Assembly: GCA_963777505.1 (NCBI GenBank)
Contig: CAVZQN010000004.1
Location: 1,792,001 to 1,856,000, forward strand
Length of the DNA: 64,000 nt
Origin: an uncultured bacterium
Lineage (GTDB): Bacteria > Acidobacteriota > HRBIN11 > JAKEFK01
Direction of reading: 5' to 3'
Positions 4,901-31,087 of the stretch are shown here, piece by piece. Within the stretch, counting starts at the first letter, position 1; every line of letters begins with the position of its first letter. A model generated the notes under the pieces. That model searched no databases. It had not been told where the DNA came from and saw only the letters and a list, made by a program, of their open reading frames with translations. The translations under genes were made by a program, and so were the position numbers.

Positions 4901-7900
4901 CGCTGGCTGGCATTCCCCAACTCAACGCTTTCGCTGACATCATGAACTGGCGCTGTAGTAGAGAACGTGGCTCAATATATCTTTCGTACAACTCAAGAGC
5001 TTTCTTCTGGTTTCCTAAACGCGCTTCTAATTCCGCCATTGAGCCAAGCCAGTTCGTATCTTTGTACGTTAATGCATACAGTTGCTCATACGTTTGAATG
5101 GCTTCTTTATATTGCCCGGCTCTTCTGTGTGCATCCGCCAGGCTCTCATTTAAATCAACGCGTTCCGGACGAATCGCAATTGCAGCACGAAAACTTGTAA
5201 TGGCATCGGCAGGATTTCCTGAATCCAGATAAATTCTGCCAAGCATCATTGGCCAGCGATGATCTTTCGGTGAGGCCGCCGCAGTCTTCTGGTAATACTC
5301 GATCAGGCGCGGTGTCAGTGCATAGCGCGCCGCAAATTCTGCGCTTTCCCGGACAAGACTTTCATTTTCAGCATCACGATTGAGAAGTTCAATATATTGA
5401 TCGAGCGCTGCAGTGTAATCTTTTAATATGAGATTTGCTTGAATGATGCCTCTTCGCATCGAAGCGATCTGTTGCTTTTTCTGATCTTCAGAAAGCTTTG
5501 AATCACGAACAAGCTGAAGGCCTGCGCGATAATGTTCGACCATTGATTTGTAATTGCCTTGTTCCGCGTAAATCTCAGAAACGAATTGAAACAAATCTGC
5601 ATTCAGTGGATCATCCTTACGCAACTCTGCGACAGATGTGAGTGCACGGTCGTACAGTTTTCTTTCGCGATAACGTCCGGCGACTTCACGCAAAAAGCGT
5701 TTTCTGAATTGAGAATTTGCGATTGAAAGAGCCGAGTCGTAAATTGCAAAGGCTTTATCGTAGTGTCCATTTCGCCAGTAGAACAAAATCAGGTCCTGGA
5801 TCAATCCATGGCTTGAGGGTTGCTTCTTATAAAGAGCAACGAGAATCGATTCTGCTGCTTGTTTTTCTCCACGCGAATCATAGAACCTGGCAAGTTCAAG
5901 ATTCAATGTAATCCGTTCAAGATCGGATGAAGCATATTGAATTTGCTTTTGAATGATCATCACGTTCGCGGAATTAAATCCGAATCTGCGAGCCGTGTTT
6001 GCTAGTGAACTGGAAATTTCTGCAAATGATTTAGGCTGTAACGTTTCTATGGCGCGTGTGAGATATTGCATCACAGTATGTTTTTCCTGCTGTGTGGAAT
6101 AAAACTCAATCACGCCGGCCCACCATGTTGAATCCTGCGGGTTTTGTTTGAGTTGTGTGTCGAGATGCGTGCGGATCAATGCGGCGAGACGCGGCCGCTT
6201 ATAAAGTTCAGTCAGCCTGTTTCTCGCTTCTTCTGATTGCGCGATCAGGCTTTTACTATATTCAGCAACAGCCGCTTCGTAGTTCCTTTTCGATTCGTAA
6301 ATCGCGCCTGCTTCGTAAGCATAGAGTGACTCCGAGGCCTGAATTGAACGCGCTCTCTGAATTAAGTTCAGAGCATCATCAAACAGGTAGTAATCCCAGA
6401 GAATTGTGGCGACTTCCAGATATCGTTCGGGATTTTGCGGATCCGAACGGATAATGTTCTCCCAGTTTTCTTTTGCTTCTGTGTATTCTTCGATTTCTGC
6501 AAGTGTTTCGCCCGCGGTAGTCCATAGCGCAATGTCAGAAGGCGAAATTCGCGCGAGATGTTCCCGAATGCTAGCTGATTCAGCGTAGAAAGATGGATTC
6601 TGCCACGCGAGTGATCGTTTCAAATCAGCAACACGTACATTCAACCATCGGTCTGAAGAATATTTCGCAGCGAGATCTTCATATAGTGGGACGGCTTCCG
6701 AATAGTGTGAATTCCAGACAAGAATGTCGGCTGCAAACAGTTTTTCAGGATTGGTGGTTGGGTTTGCAATATCTCTGGAGGTTCCGTTAGCACGATAATT
6801 GAAGAAGTTATATTGCTGCCGGATCGATTCATCCAGAAAATAATATTTCCGACAAAGTTCGTGCCAGACCGGGGGCCTTTCTGACCCGTTCGTTACATAG
6901 GCTTCCAGTAAATTGTTTACAAATGTAAGGTTGTACGGAAAGCGGCTTAAGGCGTACTCGTTGATTGCAATCTGAAGCGATCGATAGGGTTGCGGATAAT
7001 GAACACTGTTGATGTATTCGGCCACTTCAGTCCCGGCAAATAGATCCACAATTTCACGGGAGATTTTTTCAAATTCACCTTGCTGTTCGCGCCTGATATA
7101 CCATCGTGCAAGTTTTTCGTACCAACTTCGGGTCTTGAATTGTTTGATCGCTTCTTTGTAAACACCCGATTCTTCGTCAAACAAATTATTTTGAGCAAGA
7201 TAAGCGGCGAAATCGATATACAGCATTTCTTCAGAAGGATGTTGCTGAAGCTGATCGCGATAGAGTCTTAGAACTCCCATGAAATTCTTTTCACGAGTTA
7301 AGCTTGCAATGTAACGCTTTAGCAAGGATTCATATTCGAGTGACTGTACAGGCTGCGGCGTAGATTCGTTCTCGTATTCTTCTTCCTCTTCTTCTTCATA
7401 ACTCTCCGAAGGTTGCTGCGGCGGTGCGAAGAGTTGCTGAGCGTTCCTTTTCGAAGCTACGCCCAACAAATAATCATACGTGCGCCATTCATTGCTGTTG
7501 TCTTTCTTTCGCGCGTATGCCTCAACAACTTCAGTTCCAACATGAATGAGCTGTCCTGAATTTGGAAAGTTGCGGAAAAAATCTTCGCCAGTCTTAATGA
7601 TCAAATCATCCATGCCGTACTTCTTATAGATTTTCAAAACATCGTAATACATGGCAGGCAGATGTTTTGAAGATGGATATTCTCGCTGCGTAAGTCTTAC
7701 GATTGCGCCGGCTTGAGCGCGATTAAAATATCCGATCGCTTTTGTTTCCTGCAAAGAAAACTCGGATTGTGGATCCGTGCCATTTAAAATTAAAGAAAGA
7801 ATTCCATTGAACACACCAGGTGAAGCGTCGGCCTTTGCGATATCTTTGTAAAAATCCAAATTTCCAGAGCCAATCTGAATGGGACGTTCTTCCGCTGTTA

Positions 7901-9051
7901 TCAAAATTTGAAATAAGCCATACAAAGCATCATCACTTGCAAGCGTGGTATATCGCTTTGCCTTCACGTTTTGATGCAGCGCTCCGTACAGGGCAAAGTA
8001 AAAACGCGCAGACTCATTGAGATTTAGAGCTCTTTGATGCAGCTGCGCCATCACCCACAGCTCATCGGCATTCCATTGTGATTTATTTTCTCGAACGCTT
8101 TTTTCTTTCAGCAGCCGAAAATCATTTAAAACGGCAGCGGATTCAGCGGTATTTCCTGCAAAGTAATATGAATGGAATAAACGGGTGGCAGCATCAAAAT
8201 CTAAAGGATCCTTTTTGAGTTTTTGGCTGAGTGAAGCAAGATATTCACCTTTTTTTTCCGCCCGGATCGCAGCCGCATCAAGCGCTCTTGCCAGTTCAGT
8301 ATCCCAGAGGGGTTCGTAACTCTTGTTCAACAACTCAAATGCGATTGCGGGTTCAACAAGCCGTACTTTATTCAATAGATACGTTGTTTTTTGCTCAGGA
8401 AATTTCTGCTGGTAGAGTTCTACCAATTCAAGTGCATTTGCATTTGAATCGTTAGCAGATGCGCCAATCGATCCAATCCTGTAGTGCTTTTAAAGACTGC
8501 GGATATTTTTCCGTAATGATCTTGTAAATGGCTTGTGGATCTTCGGGGAGTTTGTAATTTGCACGATGAGCTAGCGCACGATGGTAGTGAGTATAGGGTC
8601 CACGGTTGTTTTCAGGATCCATGGGATCGGCAGGTTGTACGTTTGCATGGTTCAGTATTTCTTTGTACTCGTCATGGAATCGCAGCCGTTTATGATAGAA
8701 GTTTTCCAGAGCGTAATAAGCAGAATCTTTATCCGTTGATTTTTCCACGAACTGTTTTATATGGATTTCAGCCTGCGCGAAATCAAGCAGTTCAACTTCA
8801 ATATCTGAAAGCGCTTTAAGCAAAGAAATATTTTCGGGCTGAGTTTGAATCAATGACGTAAGTTTTTCCCGCACTTCCTGGGGAGTATTGGGAACAATTG
8901 CTTGCTCACCTTGAAACGATTCCTTGTGATAAAAGGCCTGTGCGATTGGATCGCTTTCGCGCAAGTCGGATGGCACAATCGCGAAAACAATGGACACAAG
9001 CAATGTAAGCGGTATTACAGAAATAGATTTCAGTAAACGAATGGCGTTCAT
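1917..9051 (-). CDS. Giant exported TPR/alpha-solenoid protein (~2,377 aa when joined); frameshift near 8462
   Basis: ORF 8452-9078 (signal peptide MNAIRLLKSISVIPLTLLVSIVFA) joins ORF 1917-8426 after removing one base at GAT TGG (C) GCA TCT. Many TPR-like helix pairs, e.g. LGRIYLDSGNPADAITSFRAAIAIRP. The start overlaps the VIT gene stop (TGATG). Confidence 0.8.
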
Positions 9052-11411
9052 CAATACACTTCCACTTTTCGCGACCATCGGCTGATGTTGTGTGCGAAAT
9101 CTTCACCAATCACTTGAAGTTCATAGACGCCGGCAGGCAAATCGTCGGGCACAATGATGTATCCAACGGAAGCTTTCTCACGGTTGTCCCATTGAATTTT
9201 TACAGGACGTGTTCCTTCTAATTTTGCATAAATATGGCGCGTATCTTGATCAGAATGGACCAGAAGTTTTACAGTGCCTCCGCGCTGAATTGTTCCCTGC
9301 CAGCGAGCTGTAATGACTGGAGGTCTGCTATCTACAATGAATGATTTCTTTTCGTCATATTGATTGCCCATGCGATCGCGCAAAATTAAACGGCAAAAGT
9401 ATGTGCCATCTGAAACTTCTTTAGGAACAAGAAAGCGTGTTTGCCAGATTTCTTCTGAAGGCAGATAGACAAGATTTTTCACAAGGCCAAACGGGAAAAT
9501 GGCTCTTACTGAAACGATATCGGGATCTGTTTTCACCCGAAGTAATGGATCGCCAGGCCGGATCGCGCGCGGCCGCAGCAAAGATCGAGGGGCAGCAAGA
9601 AATGAAGTGTACGGCGTTACAAATTTATACTTTTTTGCAAGCCTGATGATTTCATCGATGCTTGCTGCATCTTCACCTTCCAATTCAATTTTGCGTAGGA
9701 GCGCATCCACACGCATTCTGGCCCATCCGCGTGGAATAAAGGTGTGCTCTGTTGCAGATTCTGGAAAATCGACTGTGCGTTCCAGTTTAAGGTCTTTGCC
9801 TGCAAGTGTGCCGGTGGCAGAAATTCTAACGGCCGAAGCAGGAGATCGATATCTGCCGAACCAATCTTTTGATGAGCCATCGTAAACGCGGCCTGGTTCT
9901 GAAGGGTACACGTTATAAAGCAGATCGGGGGTGGAGGAACTCAGCAATAAATTATGCGCAGGCTCTTGTCCAATTTTTGAGAAGAATGCGTGAAGCTTGA
10001 AAGTTAAATCCTCCGTTTCGCGGACCCAATCAAAAGTGCCGTTGCTCCGTTCAGCAATTTCGGAAAGTAAAGTACGGTTCGTATCGGATCCGATTCCAAA
10101 GCAAAAGGCCCTCAGCGATGCGTTTTGATTTCCTGATGTGAAGTGTTCCAAAAGCTTTTTCGTTTGTATTTGAGTGAGGGTCGGATTTCCATCAGTCAGC
10201 AAAATCAGAAAGCGGTTCTTATGTTTGAGTTTGTTTGCGCTTTCAAATGCAGTATCCAATGCTTTCCGGAAGTCCGTGCCGCCCATCAAGTATTGTGACC
10301 GCACAAATTGCAGGGCTTGCGCTATGTTTTCACGCGTGGCAGGAAGGGGAGCTTCACTTGATGTTTTTGTTTCCTGGTGAAACAAAATCAATTGGAATTC
10401 ATCTTGTTCACGCAAGTTTTGTAAGAAATATTCCAGTGCTGCAAATGATTGTTCCAATTTCTCCCAGCGCATTGAAGAAGATGCGTCCAGCAGGATTAAT
10501 AAAGAACGCGGATTTTTTTCATCGACAACTCCGCCTTCGTTCAGCACCGCGGAAGTCCAAAAATAACCATCCTCTACTTTGCCGGTCGAAGGTTTTTCAA
10601 AAGCTGTGATTGTTTGACCTTCGGTTCGTAATGCAGAATCGGCTCCGCGAAATGCAAGAAAAGATAATTCGCTTTTTTTCGTATCCAGTCTGTATTGGAA
10701 GGCAAAATCTTCATTCAATGTAAGTTCACGCGCTTCAAACGTTCCTTTCCATGCGCCGCTTCCTTCAGGATTCATTTTCAATGGATAAAAACTGGAAATT
10801 AATTTAAGGTCGGCGATCGGGATGGTGCTCAGCAGTTCAAGATCCAGTGAGAAGTAGCCTGTTTTTTGTTCCCGGAATAGATCAGGTTTCAACGGCAGTG
10901 AGAAATACGATTGTGTTCCTTGTAAATCGATGCGCTGAGTGTATTCAATTTCAAGACGCTTGGTTCCATAGGCAGGGATTGGAACAATTCGCGCTGAAAA
11001 TGCACTTGCCATGCGTGCGCCTTCTTCACCTTCATCCTGTTGAAGTAAACCTGGATCGATGACCTGCATTTTCAACGATTCGTAAATTTCTGACGCTCTT
11101 TTCCGTTCCAGAATTACGCCCGGGATCCGAACCACACCGTCCCATACAGCAAAATCGGAGATGGCTGCATCACCCGGAATCGCGAAAACATATTTGCCTT
11201 CCTGCACCCGATTCGTATGATTGCCAAAAATCTGAGTGATACGGACACGCGCATGCTGATGATCTGCGCGAATATGGACCATGACTTCATCGAGCGTAAG
11301 AATCGATGGATCGGGTTCCTCGCGATCTCCCGGAATTACGACTCCGACGTCAGCAAAGACAACCGCTGAGACGAGGCTAGCGAAGATCAGGAATAGTACT
11401 AATTTTGTCAT
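9051..11411 (-). CDS. Secreted VIT + von Willebrand factor A domain protein (inter-alpha-trypsin inhibitor heavy chain-like)
   Basis: VIT signature (ITQIFGNHT...EGKYVFAIPGDAAISDFAVW...A..IYE...DPGLL), vWA MIDAS motifs DASSSM / GGTDF / LLTDG, and a FVTPYTSFL motif. Signal peptide MTKLVLFLIFASLVSAVVFA. Confidence 0.88.
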   Translation of the reverse strand: MTKLVLFLIFASLVSAVVFADVGVVIPGDREEPDPSILTLDEVMVHIRADHQHARVRITQIFGNHTNRVQEGKYVFAIPGDAAISDFAVWDGVVRIPGVILERKRASEIYESLKMQVIDPGLLQQDEGEEGARMASAFSARIVPIPAYGTKRLEIEYTQRIDLQGTQSYFSLPLKPDLFREQKTGYFSLDLELLSTIPIADLKLISSFYPLKMNPEGSGAWKGTFEARELTLNEDFAFQYRLDTKKSELSFLAFRGADSALRTEGQTITAFEKPSTGKVEDGYFWTSAVLNEGGVVDEKNPRSLLILLDASSSMRWEKLEQSFAALEYFLQNLREQDEFQLILFHQETKTSSEAPLPATRENIAQALQFVRSQYLMGGTDFRKALDTAFESANKLKHKNRFLILLTDGNPTLTQIQTKKLLEHFTSGNQNASLRAFCFGIGSDTNRTLLSEIAERSNGTFDWVRETEDLTFKLHAFFSKIGQEPAHNLLLSSSTPDLLYNVYPSEPGRVYDGSSKDWFGRYRSPASAVRISATGTLAGKDLKLERTVDFPESATEHTFIPRGWARMRVDALLRKIELEGEDAASIDEIIRLAKKYKFVTPYTSFLAAPRSLLRPRAIRPGDPLLRVKTDPDIVSVRAIFPFGLVKNLVYLPSEEIWQTRFLVPKEVSDGTYFCRLILRDRMGNQYDEKKSFIVDSRPPVITARWQGTIQRGGTVKLLVHSDQDTRHIYAKLEGTRPVKIQWDNREKASVGYIIVPDDLPAGVYELQVIGEDFAHNISRWSRKVEVY

Positions 11412-13305
11412 ATGATATCTGTAATATGCCATGATCTGTTCCTACTATCACCGAATCCTCGCCTTGTGTGAAAGCCGTCACATTTTTGGAAGGAAGTCCT
11501 TTTTCAAAATGCTTCCATGCGTTTTTCGAAGGATCATATGTATAGAATCCACGATCCAAAGTTCCGCAAAAGACCTGACTTCCGTTTGAAAACAATGCAT
11601 TTGGATTCACTTCAAAATCTTGTGGCAGGGCTTCAAATTGAATCCAATCTCCTGATTCGGTCCGGGCCTGAACTCCGCTTCCATAGGTGCCAACGAGCAA
11701 TGTACGATCCACATTCAAAAGCGCATTCACCCAGTTCCGTTTCAATCCGGAATCTACCTGTGTCCAGCTTTCCTGAACGCTGAGATCTCGCAAACGTGAA
11801 ATCCCTCCCAGAGTTCCCAGGTAAATTTGGTCGCTTTTAGCTGCAATAGCGTAGACATGATTGTTTACGAGTCCATGAAAGGCAAAAATCGATTTCATCG
11901 CTTCGCCTTCTTTTAATGTGAAACCTTGAGTTGTAGCGATGGCAATCCGTTTGCCATCAGGATCCAGGGGGATCGCTTGCATAACACGATCGCTAAGAAG
12001 ACCATCACGTTCCCGAAAGACACGCCGATTTCCTTCCGGACCGATGATCACAAGACCATTTGCTGTAGACACATAAATGTTGCCGGATTGATCAGCAGAA
12101 ATGTGATTGATAAAGGAGAGCGTTTCGTCATGCAGGTGTGAAGAAAAATTCAGCGATGCATCCAAAATATCGATGCCATGATCAAAATATCCAACCCACA
12201 ATTCACCATTCGGAGCAGCAAGCAAGCTCGAAACATTGGAGTCGGTTAGTGTAGAAACAAAAGCGTTTCCCCATGGCTGCCATCTTCCTGATGACATGCT
12301 CCAAAATTGTGTGCGGCCAAAAGCGATGAGCGTATCGCCAATTCGTTTGATCAAAACTCCATTTTCTTCCTGAGCTGGCAGTGAAGCGGCTAAGATGGGA
12401 CGTCCCGGACGCACAGTTGATTTCGTTTTTAGAAGGATCAGGCCGCGATCTTGTGATGATGCCCAAATTGAATCACGATCCGGCTCAAAAGAGGATACAA
12501 ATAAATTTTCTGCAATGCTTTGGAAGCTTTGTCCGGAATAGGATTGCAACCCGCGAGGTGTAGAGACATAACAGCCTGCAGGATTCGAATGAATATCTGT
12601 GATCATTGGATCGAGCAGGCCATCGCCGCGATCAATATGATTCAGAGTCCCGCTTTCGTAAGCAAAAATTCCTGAGTTAAATGTTCCGATATAAAGCCTA
12701 TGACTTTCTCCTGCGATGCGCGCAATCTGAATTCCTTCGAGTTGAGATGGATAAAATGGTTCGAATCTGGTTCCGTTGTATCGGATCACTCCAGATGCAG
12801 TGCCAATATAAAGCTCACCATTTGATGTCGAAAGCAGGGAAGCGATTTGGCGATGTTTTCGTCCGCGTGGAATGAATTGCTGCCAGATGCCATGAGCATA
12901 TCGAATTAATCCATTGTTTCGCGTTCCAATCCATAGTTCGCCGTTCAAAGAAGCAAGAGAAGTTAATTCAGGTTCTGGAAGGCCATCGGCTGCTGTAAAT
13001 TTTTGGAGAACTTTCCCTTTAGGATCAAGAATTAACAATCCATCTGAACCAACAACAAAGATCTTGCCTTCGAATTCGAGAGCATCATTTGCATGAAACG
13101 GACCCGATATAAGCCGGACTCCGGGGTTTGGAGCGAATTGAAGAGTACGGAGTTCAACTGACAAGACTCTGGATTCGTTAAATCTTTGTTTCTCTGCTTG
13201 TAAAACGGTTTGAGCGCGGCGAATTGAAAAGAAAGTTGCAGTAGCAATTGCAATCAAGACAAGCAAGATTGCTGCTGTTAGGATTCGGATTTGTTTCCCC
13301 TTCAC
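11377..13305 (-). CDS. Membrane-anchored beta-propeller protein (two-component regulator propeller-type repeats) with no kinase domain
   Basis: Repeated GL......SL...GELWIGT..GL motifs and an N-terminal TM helix; first gene of the operon. Confidence 0.8.
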   Translation of the reverse strand: MKGKQIRILTAAILLVLIAIATATFFSIRRAQTVLQAEKQRFNESRVLSVELRTLQFAPNPGVRLISGPFHANDALEFEGKIFVVGSDGLLILDPKGKVLQKFTAADGLPEPELTSLASLNGELWIGTRNNGLIRYAHGIWQQFIPRGRKHRQIASLLSTSNGELYIGTASGVIRYNGTRFEPFYPSQLEGIQIARIAGESHRLYIGTFNSGIFAYESGTLNHIDRGDGLLDPMITDIHSNPAGCYVSTPRGLQSYSGQSFQSIAENLFVSSFEPDRDSIWASSQDRGLILLKTKSTVRPGRPILAASLPAQEENGVLIKRIGDTLIAFGRTQFWSMSSGRWQPWGNAFVSTLTDSNVSSLLAAPNGELWVGYFDHGIDILDASLNFSSHLHDETLSFINHISADQSGNIYVSTANGLVIIGPEGNRRVFRERDGLLSDRVMQAIPLDPDGKRIAIATTQGFTLKEGEAMKSIFAFHGLVNNHVYAIAAKSDQIYLGTLGGISRLRDLSVQESWTQVDSGLKRNWVNALLNVDRTLLVGTYGSGVQARTESGDWIQFEALPQDFEVNPNALFSNGSQVFCGTLDRGFYTYDPSKNAWKHFEKGLPSKNVTAFTQGEDSVIVGTDHGILQISYDKISTIPDLR

Positions 13306-15459: not shown

Positions 15460-15628
15460 AGCCTGAAATAGCCGCCAGCGTGAGCTGGGGGGTGAGAAAC
15501 TGTGAAAAATCTAGCCCGCCTCAGGCGGGCGTAAGAGGAATATTCTTCAATGGCCGGTCTTTCACCCGCCTTCGGCGGGTTGGGTTGCGTCAGGGACATT
15601 AGATACCCCCGGCTTACGCCGGGGGCTA
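15460..15628. repeat. Multi-hairpin REP/BIME-like element between convergent genes
   Basis: Hairpins GCCCGCC-TCA-GGCGGGC, CCCGCC-TTC-GGCGGG and CCCCCGGC-TTAC-GCCGGGGG. The last codons of the neighbouring minus-strand gene run into it. Confidence 0.6.
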
Positions 15629-17067
15629 TTTGCATTCTGTTTGCGGTCTAAAAGGCTTTGAATCGCTGCTGCAAATAAAATCGCAATCAGTGGATCTATT
15701 TCAAATCGGATGCGATTATTTTCGCCAAACTCAATTAAGTTTGTAATCAATGACACCCATACAATTGTCCAGGTCATAAAAACGTAAACTCCCCGATCCT
15801 TGCCGGCGCTTAACGATTTTCTTAATCCATAGAAAATCAAAACAGGAAAAACAACGTAAAAAGTGTTCCATGGGATATAAGCCTTAGAGAGTTCGATCAG
15901 TCCACCTTGAAAGAGTAGAAGTGTCATCCACCGGCGGTATTGTTCTACACCCATGTAGTCATAGCTTTGCACCAAAAACCAGCTTGGTCCTGTTGAAGGC
16001 TGGAGGAACAACTGAAAGTTCAATAACACACGGCCCAAATATTTCTTTGGATATTCATTAATGATTGCACGATCCGCCTCAAGCATTTTCTTTGAGATTT
16101 TTGCATAATCTTCGTGATTAAAATTTTGAAATCCGTTCGATTTTTTCGCGTTGTCGATAGCCGGATGCCTGTGCTGCTGATTGCTGAAGTAGCCGAGACG
16201 CCTGTATGCATCAGGATGCATGAAAGGTCCTGTTAACCATTCGAAATTAATTTGCTTTTGCTGTGCTAAATTTCGGATCTCGGACGGCTCTAAAAAAGCA
16301 TCAAATTTTTTCAGTGCTTCATTCGGAAGAATCCAACCTCTTGCAAGGTTCATTCCCAGCCATGAACTCGGACCCGCAGATTCAACAAGCATCCAATTTT
16401 TTGCATACAAGGAAATAACTATTAGCACAGGCAGAATCGAGGCTTGAATCAAAATACGCTTGTTTTGCATTTGCATGAAAAACACAAGCGCTGCAACGCA
16501 AATCACGAACCATCCCAGGTGGTAAATCGAACGTGTAAGCATGATGGATGCAACTGTCCATGCAAAGAGATGAGCATATTTGGCTTTGCCGTCTGTGGTG
16601 AATTTCTGAAGAAAGACGATCGAGACTAAAAGAAGGAAAGCGACTGGCAATGTATAAAAGAGCAAATTTGTGTAAACCAGGAAATTTGGGAAAATTGCGA
16701 AAATGGTACAGACGAATAGGATCAAGTAAGTTCGAATCGATAAATTGCGCATGATGATTGCCATCAGGAGCAGGTTTCCCCAGCCTATCAGCCGAAGGAT
16801 CAATGAAAAAACGAACTCATAATGATTTGGAAAAAGTTGCATAACAACGCCAAGAAACCAGTTGAACAGCGGCGGTTGAGAATGAAGGTAGTAAAGACCT
16901 CGCAGAAGATCCGTCTTCAAGATTTGAGGATCAAGATATTGCCAGAAAGGTTCAATGATGATTCGCAGGCTGCCTGCAAAACGGATTCCTAATAAATAGG
17001 CAAGCAACTGACTGACAATGAAAATTACAGAAATCCAAACGTAAAGTGAGAGTTCCCTGGGCCTCAT
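15562..17067 (-). CDS. Polytopic membrane protein, GT-C/ArnT (GT39)-like
   Basis: About 10 hydrophobic segments, YYLHSQPPLF near the N-terminus and ENNRIRFEIDPL near the C-terminus. Confidence 0.6.
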   Translation of the reverse strand: MRPRELSLYVWISVIFIVSQLLAYLLGIRFAGSLRIIIEPFWQYLDPQILKTDLLRGLYYLHSQPPLFNWFLGVVMQLFPNHYEFVFSLILRLIGWGNLLLMAIIMRNLSIRTYLILFVCTIFAIFPNFLVYTNLLFYTLPVAFLLLVSIVFLQKFTTDGKAKYAHLFAWTVASIMLTRSIYHLGWFVICVAALVFFMQMQNKRILIQASILPVLIVISLYAKNWMLVESAGPSSWLGMNLARGWILPNEALKKFDAFLEPSEIRNLAQQKQINFEWLTGPFMHPDAYRRLGYFSNQQHRHPAIDNAKKSNGFQNFNHEDYAKISKKMLEADRAIINEYPKKYLGRVLLNFQLFLQPSTGPSWFLVQSYDYMGVEQYRRWMTLLLFQGGLIELSKAYIPWNTFYVVFPVLIFYGLRKSLSAGKDRGVYVFMTWTIVWVSLITNLIEFGENNRIRFEIDPLIAILFAAAIQSLLDRKQNANSPRRKPGVSNVPDATQPAEGG

Positions 17068-17088
17068 TTTACCGCGGAGACACAAAGG

Positions 17089-18384
17089 TCATTTTAGGTT
17101 TGACTGGATTGCATCAAGGTGGAGGGTCAGTGCAGCCAATGAACGAAGATCGACAAGCCATTTGCGCGATGCGTCTGTAATTTCCCATAGAGAAGGAGAC
17201 TGTACAACAATATCTGAATCAAAAATAAGATTCATAATCGAAAGGATTGCTGGATCTAGTTTTTGTTCTGCATCATTTTTGAAGCGTTTCTCATATTCCA
17301 GAGCAGCATTGGAAAGTTGATTCACAATTTGATTCATTTGGGCAGAACCAATCCCTTCTTCTGCAATGCGAGTTGCCATGGTTTGGCTCCATTCATCCAG
17401 GAACTCTGGCTTCAAGTCGCCCTTTGCAGAAAAGAAACCGCCGGTAAGGTAATCTCTCGGGTGAATGTGATGTTCAACTTTTTTAATTGGTTCTTCAAAC
17501 GATAGAGTGATCGGTTTATTTCCGAAATCGATTAAATCTCTCGCTGGTATTCCACGAATTCGAGATGCAAACAATTCGATTTCGCGCATCGCTTCATTTG
17601 GCAGTCCGGCAAGTAAACGGAGCTTGTTCAAAGGATCGGGATTTTGAAAAAGGTTGCACCGAAGCACAGTCGATTTCAAGATTAAAGCGCGTTCCGCTTC
17701 AGGATCAGCCTCTCGAACTTTTTGTCCTGATCTGATTGCTGCATCTTTTAGCAATTTGCAGAGTTGATCGAATTCATGATCAGTGATTTGAGGAATCAAA
17801 AGTGCCGCTTCAATTGCGTCTTGATGTCGTAAGATTGCCGTCGGAATTTTCTGTTTCCCGCTCGGACGTTCAATCAATCCTGAAACAATGGACAGAATTA
17901 TCTGTGATGGAAGCCGTTCAGGATATCGTCCGTATAATGCGGTAATTTCAGAGTATGTCCGCAAAGTCTGGGCCCAGTTTCGTGCAGGCAAAACTCTTTC
18001 TTGAAGGAAGCGAAGTTCCTGAGTCCGTTCCTGAGCACGAAGCTTTTTAAATCGGAATTGAATGTGAGTGATTTGGTCTTCATGAAGCCCTGCATCTTTC
18101 GCCTTGTGAAATAAATCGGTGATCGAAAGTGCAGGCAAAACGGATGGATCATGCGGTCTGATAACTGCTTCTCGCGCAGCGCCTTCAACAACCACTCGTT
18201 CTGCTTTTCTTTGTGCTTGTTCTTCAGGTGAGGGTGGTTCCGGCGGCGGTTGTTGCTGCTGTTGTTGTCGATCTTCAAGTTCAGCACGTTGCCGCATTTG
18301 TTCTTTGATGAATGCCATCTCTTGCTCAGGCACTCTGGCAATTGCCATCGGCGGCCTTATTGCGCTAATGCGATTAACTTTCAT
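17089..18384 (-). CDS. Hypothetical cytoplasmic protein with a C-terminal Csm2 (Cas11)-like helical domain
   Basis: 431-aa ORF with an N-terminal Q/P-rich tract. The C-terminal HPRDYLTGGFFSAKGDLKPEFLDEWSQTMATRI...SAQMNQI...LHLDAI resembles type III-A Csm2. Confidence 0.55.
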   Translation of the reverse strand: MKVNRISAIRPPMAIARVPEQEMAFIKEQMRQRAELEDRQQQQQQPPPEPPSPEEQAQRKAERVVVEGAAREAVIRPHDPSVLPALSITDLFHKAKDAGLHEDQITHIQFRFKKLRAQERTQELRFLQERVLPARNWAQTLRTYSEITALYGRYPERLPSQIILSIVSGLIERPSGKQKIPTAILRHQDAIEAALLIPQITDHEFDQLCKLLKDAAIRSGQKVREADPEAERALILKSTVLRCNLFQNPDPLNKLRLLAGLPNEAMREIELFASRIRGIPARDLIDFGNKPITLSFEEPIKKVEHHIHPRDYLTGGFFSAKGDLKPEFLDEWSQTMATRIAEEGIGSAQMNQIVNQLSNAALEYEKRFKNDAEQKLDPAILSIMNLIFDSDIVVQSPSLWEITDASRKWLVDLRSLAALTLHLDAIQSNLK

Positions 18385-18507: not shown

Positions 18508-19903
18508 TTATTTCGAATATAAATCAATAATTTGAGACAGTGTCTCTTCACATACTTTGCAGAATGGAACATCATTTCTGCTAAACATAATACAGTCTGC
18601 TTGCGGACGAAAATAACCGCGAGCTTCATAATTGGCTCCTTCGAACGCACCTACATTCTTAGCATACTTCTCTTTTGCTAATTCTGCAGTTTCGTGGTCT
18701 TTTTGAGTCTGAAACAACGCATCCATTTCTGATTCTGGTTTATTTTGAGCGCGAATCTCTCGTCGTTTCTTTTGAATCTCACGTGAGTAATTCTCAAATT
18801 CTTGCTTATTCCATGGTGTTGGAATCGGAGTTGCTTGCGTTACGTGTTCATTCCACTTGAGGCTCTTCGGATCGAGTAACGCAGTCACATTCGGTTCCCA
18901 TGGTTCCACACGATCTGTAGACGATTCATATGCAACATCGGAGGTGTAGTATTCATCAGCAAGAGCCGCGAAATGGTGACCGAATTCATGTACGAAAATG
19001 TAAGGTGCCCAAAGGCTATCTGCAGAAACTGTTCCGTACAGACCAAAAATTCCGCCGCCTCCATATGTCTTTTGATTCACAAGGATTTCGACAAATTCAT
19101 AAGGCGCATGTGATGAGATGTCTCTAAACGATCGGTTGTCAAATGTTAGAACATATCGCTCGGATCCGAATGCATCGTAGGTTGTTCCAACTGGTGAACG
19201 GCGATGCGTTCCTGTGGAAGGCCGTCGAGACACCGCTTTCAGAAGATTCAGGACATAAGCCCCAAACATTGAAATCGGCGCGGCGTTCTTTAAAAGGCGA
19301 AACACTGAATAGAATTTCAATCAATTTCCGTGCATCTTTTTCAAACTTGTTTCTTTCTGCAGCCGTGTAACCATCGCCAAGAATCAAAAAATCTACCTTA
19401 TTAGAAGGATCGCCTTTTTTCTCAAGCTCAATCAGTGGGCCTGGTGCGGGACTCTTTGATCGGTCGATGAAGATGTCGGTTGGATCAACAATCGTTGACC
19501 AGACTTCACGGAATGCATTATTTCGGTCACGCTTTTTCAAAACGATTTGAGCTTTTGAAGATGGAGCAGGGAAGCGCAGCGATTCATGAAACGTTTTATG
19601 CATCTGTCTGGCTTCAGAGGTTGTTTCCCATTCTCCATAAATTGAGGCAAAACCGCGTGAATAAAGGACACGATTGTTCGTTCGATCAATGACTTCAAAA
19701 ATATATTTACCGAGGTTTGTATCATCGATGGGATGATCGGGATTCCCTGGCCAGGGTAATGGCTCGACAACGATGCTATCAAGGCTGAAAAATTCCTCTT
19801 CAGCATTTCCTGTATGGTAATAGTTCAATCGCATGGTCTCAGGAGCTGCTGAAACAATCGCTGCAGCAAGGAGAAAAATGACAGCAAAGGACGTAATTTT
19901 CAT
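18508..19903 (-). CDS. Peptidase M64 (IgA-peptidase-like) secreted metalloprotease; frameshift near 19227
   Basis: Joined ORFs (SGVS|RPSTG) give ~464 aa with ILGDGYT, YGGGGI, HEFGHHFAALADEY, VGAFEGA and CIM..FC.VC motifs plus a signal peptide. Confidence 0.88.
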
Positions 19904-19926
19904 AGGCAACATTAAACCATAAGTCT

Positions 19927-20652: not shown

Positions 20653-23600
20653 TTAGTCCCCGGCTGCCGCTTCGGCAGGCAAGTCTGCAACCATTTTTGA
20701 TTCTGAACTTAGCCAGACTCTTCGTGCCCATGAAGCAGCATCATCAAATAATGTATAAACGAACGGCAAAATAACTAATGTAAGAACTGTTGAAGCAGCA
20801 AGTCCGCCAATAACTGCGCGTGCCAGGGGATAATAGCTCAGACCTAACAACGCACTGCTCCCGATTGCCAAAGGAACTAAACCCAGAATTGTTGTCGCTG
20901 CTGTCATCAAGATGGGTCGCAAACGATCATTGCCAGCTTGTAATAGCGCATCCATTCGTGAGACTCCCGATTCACGCAATTGATGGACTCGATCAATTAA
21001 AACAATTCCGTTTCTGACAACAACTCCGATTAAGATTAGCAACCCAATTTGTGCCATCAAGTTGAACGGAGTATTTGTGGCCCAAAGCAGCCAGAACACA
21101 CCGACAAGTGCAAATGGAATAGAAATAATAATGGACAAAGGATGAATCAGCGATTCAAAAAGTGAAGCCATTACGATATAGACAAGTGCAAGCGCAAGCA
21201 GGAAGTTAATCATCATTACTTTGCCATCTTCATCCGATTGCATAACACGCCTATCAAAGCTCCATGAATATCCTGCTGGAAGTTTCATCGTATTCATTTG
21301 AGAGGTGATGTTGTCTTTCATCTTCTCCCAGTCTTTGCCACTGCCTTCAAATAACGCTTTCAACGAAACGAAATTTTTGCGATTCTGGCGTTCAAGCTGA
21401 TTTTGACCTTCGACTGTATAGAAATCCACAAATGTGCGAAGAGCAGCGGGACCATTTGGTGTTCCAATCTGCAAATTTTTCAAGTCCTCAATGTTGGCGC
21501 GGTCTTCAATACGAAGTCCAAGAACCATGTCGATTTCTTTTTCGGCAGTCGTGTATCTTGGAAGGCGTTGTCCACCCAGCGTAAACATTTGAATCTGAGA
21601 AAGATCTTGCGGAGTGACTCCAGCTTTAATCGCTTTCTCACGATTCAATACCATTTGAACTTCTCCGCGTCCTGATTCGCTATCGAGACGGAGGTCCTCA
21701 ATTCCTTTAAGCTTTGCAAGACGTGACTCGGCATCACGCGCCAGAACTTTCAGTTCATCGATATCTTCACCGTATAAATACACGGAAAAGAATCTTGTAT
21801 CTCCGCCGGCTTCTTCGTCTTCATCTTCAAAATAGATTTTGACACCGCCGAATTTCGGCAATTCTTCGCGAAGCTTTTCCCGGAACGCCTTTGCTTCTTC
21901 GGCAGTCATATCATCCCGTTTAAACGTCACAACGGTCATCGCATTGCTATCAGAGAAGAAGGAATAAATGGATTCCATCGGATAGTCTTTCTTTTTTGTG
22001 TCCAGGAATTTTTCAACTTTCGTAACGATGTCTTCAACATCTGATTTGTAAGTAAAATCTGAGAACTCATATTCCACTTGCTGTCGTTTGTTTTTTCCAC
22101 CCGCAAAGGTACCTTTTTGGAGATGCTGTAAAGGCAAATAGACACTTCCCATTAGCACGATTGCAATGACAGCTGTTAGCCATCGATGGCGAAATGTCCA
22201 TCCGAGAGAAGCAACGTACTTATGCCGCATCCATGTAATGATGCGAGCCTCAGGTGCTTCCTTTTCTCGCAGGTAACGAGAGGTGACAAGGGGTATTAAC
22301 GTCAAAGAAAGGAAGAGTGAACATAACAGTGAAACAGTGATTGCGATTCCGATTTCAGAAAGGAATGTCGTGATGTTTGTTTTCTTTCCCACGATTAATG
22401 GAAGGAATACGATGATCGTTGTGATTGTAGACATCGTCACCGCGAGTGCTACCGAATTTGATCCTTTTTCCGAAGCTTCCAGTTTGTGCATTCCTTCTTG
22501 ACGGCACTTATAAATGGATTCAAGAACGACAATTGCATCATCAACAAGCATCCCGACTGCAAGCATCAAGCCCATCATCGACATTACATTGAATGTCATG
22601 CCGAGGTAATAAAGTGCTGCAGTGCCGCATAAGAGTGAGATTGGAATAGCAAGGCTAACTACGAGAGTCATATCCAGCCGTCGCAAGAAAACGTAAAGGA
22701 TTACAAGCGCGAAGAGTCCGCCCCAAAGTCCGCCTTCGGTAATTCCCGCAAGTCCATTTGTAATTTCGGCAGCTTGATCTTCCCAAACAAACAAACTAAT
22801 TCCTTTCAAATCCGGATCTTTAGGAAAGTCCTCTTTGATGAGTTTTGTTACCTGCGATGCAACGTCAACGGTATTTGCTGTTGGTTCTTTAAAAACCTGC
22901 ACCGCAACTGCATAGGAATGATTTAAATGTCTTCCGAACTCTAACGCCGGTTCCTGGTAACTAATTTCAGCAACATCTTTCAGCCGCAGGCCATGATCGT
23001 TTACAGGTAAATTTTCCAGCGCTCCGAAGTCCGGATAGTTTCCAAGAGAACGAACTGTTATCACATTACTTTCGCTCCGGATTTTTCCGACGCTTACATT
23101 GGCTCCATTTTTCTGCAGTAATTCCGCAAGCCGGCCTATATCGATATTGTGTTCGCGGATCTTGTTCAGGATTAAATCTACATAAATGACTTTTGGGTTG
23201 ACGCCTTCAAGATCAACGCGCGCAACTCCTGCAATCCGCTGAATCGGAACCTTAATTTTCTTTTCCAGCAAATCGTAGTTCGAAGCCAAATCGATTCCGG
23301 GAGCTGACAAACGAGCCTGAACTACAGGAATATCATTTGAGCTGAAGTTGAAAATGTTGATGTGTTCTACGTCAGCAGGAAGCTCCGGCCGTACCATTTC
23401 AACCTTTTCTCCGATTTCAGTGCGGATTAGATCCAGCTTCAATCCCCAATCGAATTCGCAGCTCAATTTCGGCGCCATCAGCCGTTGCACTCGAATTCAT
23501 GTTCTTGACTCCACTCATTGTGGAAAGTGCTTCTTCGATCGGCTTTACAATGTTCTTTTCAATTTGGGTAGGACTCGAATTTGGATAATCAACTCGAATC

Positions 23601-23737
23601 ATGACGACTGGAAAATCTACGCTTGGCAGATAGGCCAACTTCATGCGCGTAGCAGCGATCGCACCAAGCACAACGATGCTGGCTAAAATAACAACTGTTG
23701 TAATCGGTTTCTTGATCGCGAAGCTGGCGAGATTCAT
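20653..23737 (-). CDS. RND (AcrB/AcrD/AcrF family) efflux permease, second subunit; frameshift near 23459
   Basis: Joined ORFs (IEL|EFDWG) give ~1,027 aa with GMLVDDAIVVLE and RLRPILMT motifs. Confidence 0.9.
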
Positions 23738-26700
23738 GCTTCGGCCTCCTTTGCAGGCATTGCAGCAGGAACATCGGCTGCAACTTTCTCACGTTCAGTG
23801 ATGCTGTAAAGGATTGGGATGATGATCATCGTTAAAATTGTCGAAACTGTAAGTCCGCCGATTACGGTGATCGCCAGAGGAGCACGGATTTCCGAACCTT
23901 CGCCGGTGCTGAAAGCCATCGGAATCAATCCAAGCAATGTTGTAAGCGTGGTCATGATAATGGGACGAATACGAACATTACCGGCTTCGATAATTGCATC
24001 AACCATGTTGAGTCCATTTTTGCGGCCATGATTGATGTAATCCACCAGAATAATTCCGTTCTTTACAACAATTCCTGCAAGGATAATGAAGCCCATAAAT
24101 ACAATTACGCTTATTTCCTGCTGAGTAATCCACAGAATCCATGCAATACCAATCACCGAAAGCGGCACGGTAAACATGAGTACGAAAGGTTGTTTCAAGG
24201 ATTCAAATTGTGCGGCCATTACGAAGTAGACAAGGAAGATTGAAAGTCCAGCTACGAGATACAATGAACGGAACGAGCGCTGCAGTTCTTCATTTTGACC
24301 GCCAAGAATCGCATTTACCTTCGCAGGCATTTGAGTTTCACTGATTACACGATTAATCTCTTGCGATACTTGACCAAGACTTGCACCACTCAAGTTTGCT
24401 GAAATGACGATTGACCGTTTTTGATTAATGCGACGAATTTCATTCGGACCGCGTCCGCTGACTACCTGTGCAACTGCCTTCAGCGGCACGGCAATATTTT
24501 CAACACGAGCGATCGTCATGTTTTGTAAATCTTCAATCGAATCGCGATCAATGTCTTCGTTCCAAACTCGAATGTCGATTTCTTCATCACCTTCGCGGAA
24601 CTCTGTCGCGATGTCGCCTCGAACTTTGCTTCTCAAAATATTCGCAACGTCCTGAAGATTCAGATTAAAGCGTGCTAGCTGTTCGCGATTAAAAAGAATG
24701 TGAGCTTCAGGCGATCCTTCTTCCCAGCTTGATTTGATATCGGTTAGACCAGTGAGCCCTTTCATCCGTGTTTCGAGCTCTTGAGCTGTTTTGCTGGTCA
24801 TTTCAAGATCATCACCATATACCTCAACTTCAACCGGAGTGCGGAAGCTGAATAGACTTGGACGTTGCATCTTGTAAAGCAAATCGGGATGACGATCCAG
24901 GATGCCGCGGATTTTTTCTGCAGTTTGTTCTTCTGCGAGTTGAAGGTCTTTTCCATCAACTTTTATGTTCAACACTGCGGAATTCTCATAACTCTCTGCA
25001 GCGGTCCAGCTAACGTTTGCATTTCGCCCTAGCAGAAGCATGCAGGTTTTAACTTCCGGAATTGTGCGCACTTTATCTTCTACATTTCTCAGTACTTTTT
25101 CAGTTTGCGAAAGAGGTGTACCTTGTGGCAACTCTATTTGGAAACTGAATTCACCTTGACTGACTGGAGGAATCAGCTCAACGCCAAGACTTCCGAGCAT
25201 TAATACTGACAAGAATACAAGCGCGGCAGTGGCTGCAAGCACAGTCCAGCGAAAACGCAGCGCACCCCTCAGAATGCCAGGATACGATTTGTAAAAAACA
25301 TTGAGAAGGGCATCCGTCAGTTTAACAAAGGGTGCAATCAACTTTGATAGGATCATGCCGATAATACGGAACAGCTTTCGGAGGAACACTAGAATCAGTG
25401 TCGGTCCTTTATGGAAAACTGCGCGCGAAACACGATTTTTATATTGTGGAATTTCAGAAGGATCCTTTTTAAGTCCGCGTGAAAAAAGCATCGGAATTAA
25501 AGCAAATGCAGAAATCATCGAAACCAGAAGGGAAACGGTGACTGTGATTGCCAGGTCTTTGAACATCTGACCGGCAATTCCTTCAATAAAAGAAATAGGA
25601 AGGAATACAACGACTGTAGTAAGCGTACTTGCAGTAACGGCGAGGCCAACTTCTTTTGTGCCTTCATATGCAGCTTTGGCCAATGGCGCTCCAGCTTTGT
25701 AATGCCGGACGATCGACTCAAGTACAACGATTGCATCATCCACAAGCATTCCAACGCCGAGCGCGAGTCCGCCAAGTGACATGATGTTCAGCTTGAGTCC
25801 CAAGTTGATACATGACGAAAAATGTTGTGATGATTGAAATCGGAATTGATAGACCGATGATGACCGTAGACCGGAATTCTTTTAAGAAGAAGAACAGTAT
25901 AAAGATTGCAAGCAGACCGCCGATAATTGCATTGTCGCGAACTTCATTGATCGAATCCTGAATGAACTTCGACTGATCGAACATAATGTCCATTCCGATA
26001 TTGGTTTTGGATGATGAACCAAGAGATGATTTCTGGATTGATTCCAGTCTTTGCTTTGCGGCACGTGCAACCTGGACTGTGTTTGCATCGCCTTCTTTGA
26101 ATATTGCAAGTTCAACGCCTTCTTTGCCGTTGATGCGTGTAATGACTTCACGTTCCTTGGTTCCTCTTTCAACTCGCGCAACATCACGCAATAAAATTTT
26201 GCGTTGATTGTCTTCCTTCACGATCAGTTCCGAAAGATCGTTCACTCGCTGAAATTCATTTAAAGTACGAACAAGATATCGGGCTTCATTTTCATACAGA
26301 CTTCCGCCAGCGATGTTTACGTTGTTTCTTGATAGCGTATTGTTGACATCTTCAACAGTTAAGCCGAGTCCAGCGAGTTTTGTTTCATCAAGATAAACAT
26401 GGATTTCTTCTTCCAATCCACCGTTAATTTTTACTGCTGCAATGCCATCCAATGATTCGAGATCTTTTTTGATTGTCTTTTCCGCGAACATACGCAGTTC
26501 AACCAGATTGGAACCACCGCTCAGAATCACGCGCAAGATAGGATCGTTGGAAGGATCAAAACGCAGAACATTTGGTTTTTCTGCATCCCGGGGAAGTTGA
26601 ATCAGATCAATTTTTTCGCGGACATCCAGTGCTGCGAAATTCATGTTGGTATCCCAACCGAATTCCATCGTTACTTCAGATACACCGGCACGGCTGCGGC

Positions 26701-26944
26701 TTGTGATCCGTTGTACACCAGATACAACAGCGACCGCTTCTTCAATCGGTTTCGAAATTAAGTTCTCAACTTCGTTCGGCGCTGCTTGTGCATATTTTGT
26801 TTCAACCGTAAGACTTGGATATGAAATATCCGGCAGGAGGTTGATCGGAAGACGGTTGAATGCCACCAGGCCGAACATGATCACTGCAACAGTGACCATG
26901 CCGACTGTAATAGGACGCCTGATTGAGATATCCGCGATTTTCAT
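23734..26944 (-). CDS. RND (AcrB/AcrD/AcrF family) efflux permease, first subunit; frameshift near 25800
   Basis: Joined ORFs (YQLG|LKLNIMSLGG) give ~1,069 aa with SIRRPI, GMLVDDAIVV and RIRPIIMT motifs. Confidence 0.9.
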
Positions 26945-29796: not shown

Positions 29797-31086
29797 TTAA
29801 TTCTTCACCTGTTCTGTTGCTCTCACATTCGAAACAGAGAGTTGAGATCCGACTCCCGGTGAACGTACGGCTTTTTCTAACGCAGTTTTAACTTGAGCAA
29901 CTGATGCATATCGCGCGGCGGGTTCTTTCTCCAAACATTTTAGAATGACTGTCTCAATTTCTTCGGGCAGCTGCGGATTGATTTCGCGCGGTGGACGTGG
30001 CGGATCTTTCATTTGCATAAAGCCGACAGCAATAGCAGAATCTCCACTGAATGGAACTCTTCCAGTGAATAATTCATACAAAATAATTCCAAGCGCATAA
30101 ATGTCTGCTCGTTCATCAACCCGTTTTCCTGCGACCTGCTCTGGCGCCATGTATTCGGGAGTCCCCATGATTAACCCTGTCGCTGTCATCCCTTGAAGAT
30201 GTGCACTGTGAGCCAGTCCGAAATCAATAATCTTCAAATGTCCGGAAGGGGCTATGATGATGTTTTGCGATTTTAGATCTCTGTGAATCACACCTTGCTT
30301 GTGTGCTTCTTCAAGGCCATCGCAAATTTGTGACGCGATGTTGTATGACTCCATCATCGAAAGCGAACCGCCATGACGGATATGCTCCTTCAATGTTGTT
30401 CCGTAGAAATATTCCATCGAAACATAATGAAGGCCTTTTGTTTCTGCGATGTCATGAATGCGAATTACATTTGGATGCGTAATGCGGCGTGCAGCCGAGA
30501 CTTCACGCTTCATCCGATCAAGGGCATCTGTATCATTACTAAGCAGCGGTGAAAGAATTTTGATTGCAACCTGTTCATTCAGTTGTTTATCGTGCGCTTG
30601 AAAAACGATCCCCATACCGCCTCGTCCCAGCTCTTGTAATATTTGATAGCGTCCTTCCAGCGCAGATGCAATGTTCATGAAAGCCGTCGGCATCTGGCTG
30701 ACACCTGCAGGATTTCCCACACCGGAGCTCAACATTCTGGCCATGCTCAAGGATTTTTCCATTTGTAAATTAATTTCGCGATCCATATTGCATAGCATGG
30801 ATTCCAGATTTTCTACACGTTCTTGCATCCTCTTGAGTTGAGCTTCGGTTTGTGGATTTGAGGCGGAAGTTATTTGACGCACTTCCATTTCCTGTTTCGC
30901 TAACTTCCTTTTATGCCAGAGCCAAAACGGAACAGTAATCATTGCAGTTCCAGAAAGGATTGCAATCATCGGCACCATGATTTCTACGCGATGTCCGAAG
31001 GCACCGAAAGCCGCCATACCGAGCACGGCATAAATGACTGCATTCCAATTTAAACGGTTCGATTTTTCTTTCTTTTCTTCAGCCAT
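29797..31086 (-). CDS. Ser/Thr protein kinase with N-terminal TM helices and a PspB-like coiled coil
   Basis: GRGGMG, VAIK, HRDLKSQN, DFG, GTPEYMAPE; N-terminal PFWLWH...RMQERVENLESML. Confidence 0.9.
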   Translation of the reverse strand: MAEEKKEKSNRLNWNAVIYAVLGMAAFGAFGHRVEIMVPMIAILSGTAMITVPFWLWHKRKLAKQEMEVRQITSASNPQTEAQLKRMQERVENLESMLCNMDREINLQMEKSLSMARMLSSGVGNPAGVSQMPTAFMNIASALEGRYQILQELGRGGMGIVFQAHDKQLNEQVAIKILSPLLSNDTDALDRMKREVSAARRITHPNVIRIHDIAETKGLHYVSMEYFYGTTLKEHIRHGGSLSMMESYNIASQICDGLEEAHKQGVIHRDLKSQNIIIAPSGHLKIIDFGLAHSAHLQGMTATGLIMGTPEYMAPEQVAGKRVDERADIYALGIILYELFTGRVPFSGDSAIAVGFMQMKDPPRPPREINPQLPEEIETVILKCLEKEPAARYASVAQVKTALEKAVRSPGVGSQLSVSNVRATEQVKN

Positions 31087-31087
31087 G

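Follow-up and report, generated by a model that had tools for sequence, protein, structure and literature searches.

The stretch of DNA analyzed here, which we call the window, comprises 64,000 nucleotides (nt; positions 1,792,001 to 1,856,000 of contig CAVZQN010000004.1, assembly GCA_963777505.1) from an uncultured bacterium of the phylum Acidobacteriota. An open reading frame (ORF) of this window, P0001, encodes a protein in which an all-helical module (N-module) is joined to a domain resembling Csm2 of type III CRISPR complexes (C-module) (Table 1). Elsewhere in the phylum the two parts occur as adjacent separate genes, the first of which encodes a protein with a papain-fold protease domain, and P0001 is thus a fusion of both products of a linked gene pair.

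Table 1. Features of the P0001 locus (window positions) and loci of the gene family fam1 (positions in the named locus)
Feature	Coordinates	Strand	Description
P0001, whole ORF	17089..18384	-	431 amino acids + stop; helical N-module fused to Csm2-like domain
P0001 residues 1-65	18190..18384	-	short conserved N-terminal peptide, then Q/P/E-rich low-complexity stretch
P0001 residues 66-285	17530..18189	-	all-helical N-module, common to ~480-amino-acid protease proteins
P0001 residues 249-261	17602..17640	-	aligned with the predicted docking site for the Csm2-like partner on the N-module
P0001 residues 286-305	17470..17529	-	junction; papain-fold protease domain begins here in relatives
P0001 residues 306-431	17092..17469	-	Csm2/Cas11-like helical bundle, acidic, without basic Q-L-R-x-F motif
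507-amino-acid polytopic membrane protein	15562..17085	-	starts 3 nt after P0001 stop; no Pfam match
Terminator-like GC hairpin + T run	15514..15530	-	after the 507-amino-acid ORF (consensus scan only)
fam1, locus L004	9639-10585		G000:C4, about 769.6-770.6 kb
fam1, locus L045	2667-3380
fam1, locus L046	1419-1928

The protein database holds a shorter version of P0001, 419 amino acids (aa) counted from Met13. Since the orthologues and the gene of a sister species align from residues 1-2, we kept the longer start; the sister-species orthologue also opens with the same N-terminal motif. The orthologues are 47-80% identical to P0001 at 96-100% query cover, with the one exception being an entry of 301 aa (89% identity, 70% cover). 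The C-terminal ~125 aa read exactly as quoted in a preliminary description of this DNA. No relevant match to the whole protein or to its C-terminal part was obtained from Pfam, NCBIfam or PADLOC, the N-module belongs to no Pfam family, and the ESM Atlas gave no usable match for residues 60-305 or 306-431.

An exhaustive phmmer search with P0001 returned 59 proteins. The majority, 38, matched only residues ~45-287 and ranged in length from 150 to 1337 aa, while 16 matched only residues ~306-430, 15 of them being standalone proteins of 138-162 aa and one a fragment of 103 aa. Four proteins, including that of the window itself, matched both parts, and the last one was a short N-terminal fragment. 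Because relatives match either part separately, P0001 is correctly described as a fusion of two independent modules. The preliminary description had recognized a ~125-aa domain fused to an unrelated part of ~300 aa, and this holds; it had overlooked that this domain usually has a gene of its own. It had also suggested looking for homologous fusions, and the analysis covered 19 fused proteins. A second, standalone copy of the C-module is encoded in the window's genome (140 aa, 30% identity, pairwise expectation value (E) of 5e-11). We refer to the C-module and its standalone relatives as the orphan family.

The resemblance of the C-module to Csm2 (Cas11), claimed in the preliminary description, is borne out by structure prediction, fold searches and profile comparison. 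An AlphaFold2 model of the C-module, made with an alignment of 18 orphan-family members (A1), reached a predicted local distance difference test score (pLDDT) of 95.8 and a predicted template modelling score (pTM) of 0.89, and the 12 best Foldseek matches listed for it (ranks 1-13) were all chains of Csm entries, with probabilities up to 0.99. Csm2 took ranks 1-4 of 48,161 chains in one fold comparison and ranks 1-22 in a second, over the whole domain in both cases. A viral structure library gave no match (best E 0.57). Curated hidden Markov models (HMMs), the other search that had been proposed, behaved differently from Foldseek: the PF03750 and NCBIfam Csm2 models did not match whole P0001 or the 125-aa domain even at E<=10, and PF03750, which picked up 12 true Csm2 genes across 301 genomes of the phylum, missed every orphan-family gene. 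Likewise, a sequence-profile search of the PDB with A1 returned no Csm2, the best match being to designed bundles (E 0.3).

Profile-profile alignment detected the relationship at sequence level. When A1 was aligned by hhalign with 11 diverse Csm2 proteins (one partial gene omitted), the probability was 35% over 104 columns, and 15% when the query was an alignment of standalone proteins only (A6). The register was that proposed in the preliminary description, and the motif given there is present in 2 of the 12 true Csm2 proteins of the phylum. A Csm2 subfamily bearing this motif comprised 102 matches, nearly all annotated as PF03750, of which 48 were used for alignment A3. Against A3, the probability rose to 90.2% (E 1.5e-6, 77 columns, signature motifs aligned) for A1 and to 89% for A6. 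The YL..G[YF]F..G.L signature and the C-terminal His of Csm2 were in register with the C-module. Unrelated profiles gave at most 0.6% and reversed alignments 0.1%, and 100 column shuffles had a mean score of 12.8 (standard deviation 2.7, maximum 25.1), compared to a real score of 44.3. We conclude that the C-module is very probably a diverged homologue of Csm2.

The features by which Csm2 contacts RNA are gone. In A2 and A3, the two Csm2 alignments, the Q-L-R-x-F motif has an invariant Gln and an invariant Arg, while the orphan family is variable at this position and P0001 reads Q-M-N-Q-I, as had been noticed before. The positive charge expected of an RNA binder is missing as well: the orphan family is acidic (median isoelectric point 5.1, net charge -5), and Csm2 is basic (median ~9.5, net +6). 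These sequence features fit with a loss of RNA binding in the C-module.

Relatives of the N-module were aligned as a large family of 33 sequences (A5), which consist of a variable N-terminus, a helical half that is conserved, and a C-terminal half in which Q290, C296, H425, D431 and D445 hardly vary. The N-termini are disordered or carry LysM (5 of 33 members) or PG_binding_1 (one member), and a single relative, P0049, carries the whole large-family core behind a VgrG spike. In the AlphaFold2 model of the member at locus L019 (pLDDT 87, pTM 0.83), helices H75-H273 make up the N-module, the protease fold spans residues ~275-474, and residues 1-48, equivalent to part of the P0001 N-terminus, are disordered with pLDDT below 50. 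The best Foldseek matches of this model were 8ssk, a Citrobacter rodentium CdiA-CT structure that comprises entry and toxin parts (E 2.9e-4), and 9l5u, whose chain B matched the papain/C39-like domain with E 4.8e-3 and a template modelling (TM) score of 0.68 on the target. Since whole-protein fold searches were filled by the protease domain, the fold class of the N-module is given here as all-helical only. Pfam scans of the single members hinted only faintly at a protease, with Peptidase_C70 in one of 33 (E 0.031) and Peptidase_C39 in one of 33 (E 0.16), and a sequence-profile search of the PDB with A5 gave no matches.

P0001 residues 66-285 align with residues 59-272 of the L019 protein (blastp, 33% identity, E 2.75e-33), and the A5 profile matches P0001 at positions 19-288 only. 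The papain fold and its Cys-His-Asp set are present in the large protein and absent from P0001. Since the start of the Csm2-like domain coincides with the expected start of the protease domain, the replacement of the protease is a clean one, and because the protease domain is missing, P0001 is not a toxin of the Cpe1 or StbD-CT type. At their very start, P0001 (residues 1-12) and many large proteins (A5 columns 1-30) have a similar short hydrophobic/Gly-Ser motif, followed by a P/Q/T-rich disordered linker; this motif could be a recognition or export peptide. VipB, the sheath protein of type VI secretion systems (T6SS), was absent from all six carrier genomes tested, in which other export routes were not searched, and no Phage_GPD was found in the window's genome.

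With the A1 profile, the small family was detected in 7 of the 401 phylum genomes searched, frequently as multiple copies. Clustering of ORFs at these loci revealed two arrangements of the standalone small gene. At six loci it lies directly downstream, on the same strand, of a homologue of the P0001 N-part (469-491 aa for copies not truncated at the end of a contig), and at five loci it lies downstream of a gene of another family, fam1 (~150-240 aa). The large gene is found just upstream of fam1 at two of these five, so that fam1 stands between the protease gene and the small gene there. Seen from the other side, 7 of 10 full-length large genes, from 5 genomes, are followed by a small gene, and none was detected after the remaining 3; genome G041 holds two complete cassettes. 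At no locus examined was the small gene beside cas genes; it is linked to the protease gene instead. No match to fam1 was found in Pfam, NCBIfam or PADLOC, and PADLOC also had none for the large, small or VgrG-fusion proteins. Two fam1 members start with a lipoprotein-like signal, and fam1 may act as a further cassette partner in the periplasm; a relationship of fam1 with the large family was considered and rejected, as hmmsearch shows none. The window's genome holds P0001 and a standalone pair of fam1 and small gene, and no protease-bearing family member according to the A5 profile.

Cassette neighborhoods are variable, with Phd/ParE, PIN, transposase and CHAT-TPR genes among the neighbors. 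At locus L042 of the sister species, a gene for a 1026-aa TPR-CHAT protein (6862-9939, +) is convergent to a complete cassette (9952-11905, -), and Phd/ParE, a Mutator-type transposase and an extracytoplasmic function sigma factor are encoded in the vicinity; a CHAT neighbor was seen in only one of four neighborhoods. At L046 (G120:C35), the large protease gene (252-1403) has two in-frame stops, one TGA and one TAA, while fam1 and the small gene are open, and this locus is an example of a toxin gene decaying with its partners left behind.

The physical association of the natural pair was modelled with residues 70-474 of the L019 large protein and its small protein, each with its own alignment. 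The complex scored 0.82, compared to 0.04 for the best of three controls. In the calibration, 58 of 80 solved complexes and 2 of 110 mismatched pairs attained that mark, counts that apply only roughly here since the pair was run with alignments of our own. Runs agreed in at least 100% of contacts, and pLDDT of the partner was at least 87. Confident contacts on the large protein fell on residues 188-189 and 236-248, which places them in the helical module, outside the protease, and predicted contacts on the small protein include the conserved F21, G26, W115 and A119/A120. The docking segment is variable among family members. In a pairwise alignment it corresponds to P0001 residues 249-261, which would be the docking segment in P0001 itself. 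The prediction agrees with the fusion, as the parts joined in P0001 are those predicted to bind each other.

The fusion is old and has been maintained. Of the 19 fused proteins, 18 (375-432 aa) form one clade with support of 96/93 and long internal branches, and P0026 stands apart on a long branch. Comparison of P0001 with its sister-species orthologue gave a rough ratio of nonsynonymous to synonymous substitution rates (dN/dS) of 0.14 in the N-module and of 0.22 in the Csm2-like domain, at a saturated dS of ~1.9.

The preliminary description stated that no CRISPR locus is nearby, and indeed we found no cas genes among 44 scanned ORFs and no array-like repeats in the window. At its very end (63884-63954) there is a pair of exact 28-nt direct repeats, 43 nt apart, which are too closely spaced for a CRISPR array and may extend past the window. 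The genome as a whole (5.23 Mb, 14 contigs, 95.9% complete) showed no match to Csm2, Cas1 or RAMP models and no full Cas10, the sole Csm1 signal being 27.8 bits to the first ~100 model positions at a cut-off of 170. A six-frame search of it with PF03750 also found nothing, while controls matched in 4 genomes. RAMP genes were present in 3 of 5 other carrier genomes tested and absent from two (G041 and G096). Type III cas operons elsewhere in the genome, for which a search had been recommended, were therefore not found, and given the lack of Csm2, Cas1 and RAMP in this genome and of RAMPs in two of five other carriers, a role linked to type III systems is not supported. The earlier proposal of a regulator or decoy of a type III complex thus finds no support, and the conserved neighbor of the domain is instead the papain-fold protease protein.

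Immediately downstream of P0001 is the gene for the 507-aa membrane protein. It is probably co-transcribed with P0001, and whether it is part of the feature is uncertain: it is absent from the otherwise syntenic sister-species locus (L016), where an ABC-2 transporter follows directly. By consensus scan only, no terminator-like hairpin lies between the two ORFs, and no sigma-70-like site was found upstream of P0001 on its strand by a scan that covers no other promoter types. Seven sequencing runs are listed, with shares of 0.06-0.12, and no RNA run is among them. A parallel between the 507-aa protein and the PMT_2 glycosyltransferase beside the second copy was dropped, the two being unrelated. 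Upstream, a 159-aa ORF has no similarity to P0001, and an M64 peptidase gene is split into overlapping ORFs (18508-19320 and 19139-19912, -). The same kind of split, into two overlapping ORFs, affects each of two AcrB-type transporter genes (20653-23737 and 23734-26944, -); split genes in the window are either pseudogenes or the result of assembly indel errors. Other large proteins of the window are a 2169-aa TPR protein (1917-8426, -) and a 1073-aa Kelch-repeat protein (40707-43928, +), and two Ser/Thr kinase genes are adjacent to each other (29797-32269, -). These TPR, kinase and Kelch-repeat genes encode signalling or surface proteins unrelated to the P0001 finding.

We propose the following mechanism. 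A conserved gene pair, independent of CRISPR and patchily distributed in the phylum, encodes two products of which P0001 is a natural fusion. Gene 1 provides a ~480-aa protein consisting of a variable N-terminus, the helical N-module and a cysteine protease of papain/C39 fold (Gln/Cys...His...Asp), and gene 2, immediately downstream, a ~140-aa acidic protein that is very probably a diverged Csm2 (Cas11) homologue. The small protein no longer has the basic RNA-contact motif and would serve as a protein binder, which is predicted to clamp the helix-loop, variable in sequence, of the N-module. The Csm2-like domain of P0001 stands exactly at the module boundary in place of the protease domain, giving a protease-less 'module plus keeper'. 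We infer that the small protein is a producer-protecting, immunity-type keeper of a protease toxin, and that P0001 and the second standalone copy may serve as orphan immunity or decoy proteins against toxins of relatives. We favor an immunity-type role on three grounds: the position of the small gene, downstream of that for the toxin, the variability of the docking segment, and the persistence of orphan copies in a toxin-less genome. Resting on the anatomy, homologies, folds, gene linkage, absence of CRISPR, and age and conservation of the fusion described above, the whole account, in which P0001 is an old protease-less fusion of a toxin-family N-module with an exapted Csm2-homologue keeper, has in our estimation a probability of about 0.55.

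Several observations weigh against this account, namely the predicted docking on the N-module, the lack of a delivery system, as judged by VipB, in the six carrier genomes, and the variable neighborhoods, some of them mobile or rich in toxin-antitoxin (TA) genes. They keep two alternatives alive. According to the first, which we consider possible although doubtful, the small protein is a secretion chaperone, adaptor or stabilizer of the effector N-module, and P0001 a chaperone-cargo-module fusion with a derived role. Its predicted contacts are confined to the non-catalytic module, and in this it differs from Cpi1 and StbI, two immunity proteins of solved structure, both of which bind the peptidase domain according to the accessible parts of the reports (PMC12136450; bioRxiv 10.64898/2026.05.07.723447). 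A chaperone would not be expected to persist in a protease-less genome, as is typical of orphan immunity genes; furthermore, the place downstream of the protease gene is the usual one of an immunity gene, the docking segment varies between family members, and no secretion apparatus was found nearby.

The second alternative, to which we give somewhat less credit, is that the pair is not an exported weapon but an intracellular TA or abortive-infection module, in which the Csm2-like protein restrains the protease until a trigger arrives, P0001 being a regulatory derivative. The lack of a T6SS sheath gene in all six carrier genomes tested, the neighborhoods with Phd/ParE, PIN, transposase and CHAT-TPR genes, and the merely disordered N-terminus of most large proteins are all consistent with this and count against the keeper of an exported toxin. 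LysM, PG_binding_1 and VgrG N-termini in some members point instead to the envelope or to injection, PADLOC matched no component, and the closest structural neighbors include exported toxins.

It is improbable that the likeness to Csm2 reflects convergence of a small helical bundle with no Cas11 kinship. Two points detract from homology: no Foldseek E-value for the C-module was below 0.1, and the A3 subfamily was picked for sharing the motif, which biases toward a match. Despite this selection bias we regard the signal as real because of the column shuffles and the independent query alignment. Convergence would have to explain top ranks over the whole domain in two fold comparisons, probabilities of 89-90% reached by two query alignments that are partly independent, with shuffled, reversed and unrelated-profile controls all clean, and signature and C-terminal His in register.

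Still less probable is that P0001 is a decaying remnant without a function of its own, left after deletion of the protease domain. The protease is indeed missing, the sister-species orthologue (L016) is split by one frameshift, and the stopped large gene of G120, with open neighbors, demonstrates that cassettes do decay; these last two observations do not favor a maintained fusion. Splits are seen in several other genes of the window too, which suggests indels of the assembly, and not decay, as a possible origin of the frameshift. A remnant is also hard to reconcile with 18 fused proteins in one deep, well-supported clade, listed orthologues retaining 47-80% identity, and dN/dS of about 0.14-0.22 in both modules. 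Very unlikely, and largely refuted for the window's genome, is the reading that a type III complex is regulated or decoyed by the domain, or was the source of an oligomerisation module: inside Csm complexes, true Csm2 forms a stacked filament, and three other carriers have RAMP genes, but this 95.9% complete genome has no Csm2, Cas1, RAMP or full Cas10, G041 and G096 lack RAMPs, the conserved neighbor is a protease gene and not a cas gene, and the small family is acidic.

If the keeper account is true, it provides a clear case of a CRISPR effector part exapted for protein recognition and a new immunity or keeper fold for papain-type toxin systems. From the fusion that exists in nature and from the predicted interface, concrete constructs can be derived for testing binding, toxicity and protection, and orphan-family sequences may help to root the Cas11 family. 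Were the function plain orphan immunity, the biology would be ordinary and the evolutionary origin still unusual. An improbable further reading is that the orphan family, instead of being a late offshoot of CRISPR, represents a stock outside CRISPR that gave rise to the small subunit of type III, a protein-clamping helical bundle having been the keeper of a large partner at first and having later been adopted beside Cas10; if true, this would give the first Cas11 outgroup and a testable route to its origin. In a milder form, a CRISPR effector subunit would have been domesticated as the specificity-determining partner of a protease toxin.

To our knowledge, Cas11-type small subunits have been described only inside CRISPR-Cas effector complexes. 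Among the papers listed by a full-text search, which to judge by title or abstract all deal with CRISPR-Cas or genome editing apart from one on software for finding gene clusters, none reports a Cas11-, Csm2- or Cmr5-like protein outside CRISPR systems, and supplementary tables of the two toxin papers might list related immunity families. The C-module shares with Csm2 (PF03750) the helical-bundle fold over the whole domain, the orphan family shares its N-terminal YL..G[YF]F..G.L motif and C-terminal His, and the standalone proteins are of similar size (138-162 aa). Unlike Csm2, the C-module is missed by the curated HMM, lacks the invariant Gln/Arg and is acidic, and the orphan family is linked to a protease gene and, in P0001, fused to a foreign module.

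In operons of staphopain and staphostatin (PDB 8oig, 1pxv), the staphostatins are beta-barrel inhibitors that block the active site, whereas the cassette partner is helical and related to Csm2. Likeness to Cpe1/Cpi1 (PMC12136450; PDB 9l5u) lies in the match to the papain-like domain, the small gene immediately downstream and the one VgrG-fusion relative. As far as the accessible parts of the reports go, toxins of the Cpe1 and StbD-CT type are interbacterial, cleave GyrB and ParE and are neutralized by a small downstream immunity protein (PMC12136450; bioRxiv 10.64898/2026.05.07.723447); Cpi1, described there as having no significant structural homologue, binds beside the catalytic pocket (PMC12136450), and StbI, a five-stranded beta sheet with two helices, cradles the peptidase (bioRxiv 10.64898/2026.05.07.723447). 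The cassette partner differs from Cpi1 in its Csm2 fold and in being predicted to bind the N-module, and the Cpe1 system differs in that P0001 has no protease and no T6SS was found in the carrier genomes tested. StbD-CT, a CdiA-like C39 peptidase toxin of C. rodentium (PDB 8ssk, 8ssm), has a helical domain before the peptidase according to the available part of its description. Global superposition of the large protein on 8ssk was poor (TM 0.21/0.32, root-mean-square deviation 15.7), so equivalence of the helical domains is not demonstrated, and unlike StbD-CT/StbI, no CdiA/CdiB context was seen at the cassettes.

Like the orphan immunity genes described in the accessible portions of two studies (bioRxiv 10.1101/471110; PMC12247911), partner-type genes are kept here in a genome, 95.9% complete, that has no cognate toxin gene. 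Unlike orphan immunity or acquired defence clusters, they form no array with mobile elements, and one copy is fused to a toxin-derived module. As far as these sources go, cassettes of a protease toxin and its partner and orphan immunity genes are already known kinds of system. The novel points are the partner's Csm2 ancestry, the docking predicted for it on a non-catalytic module, and the protease-less fusion.
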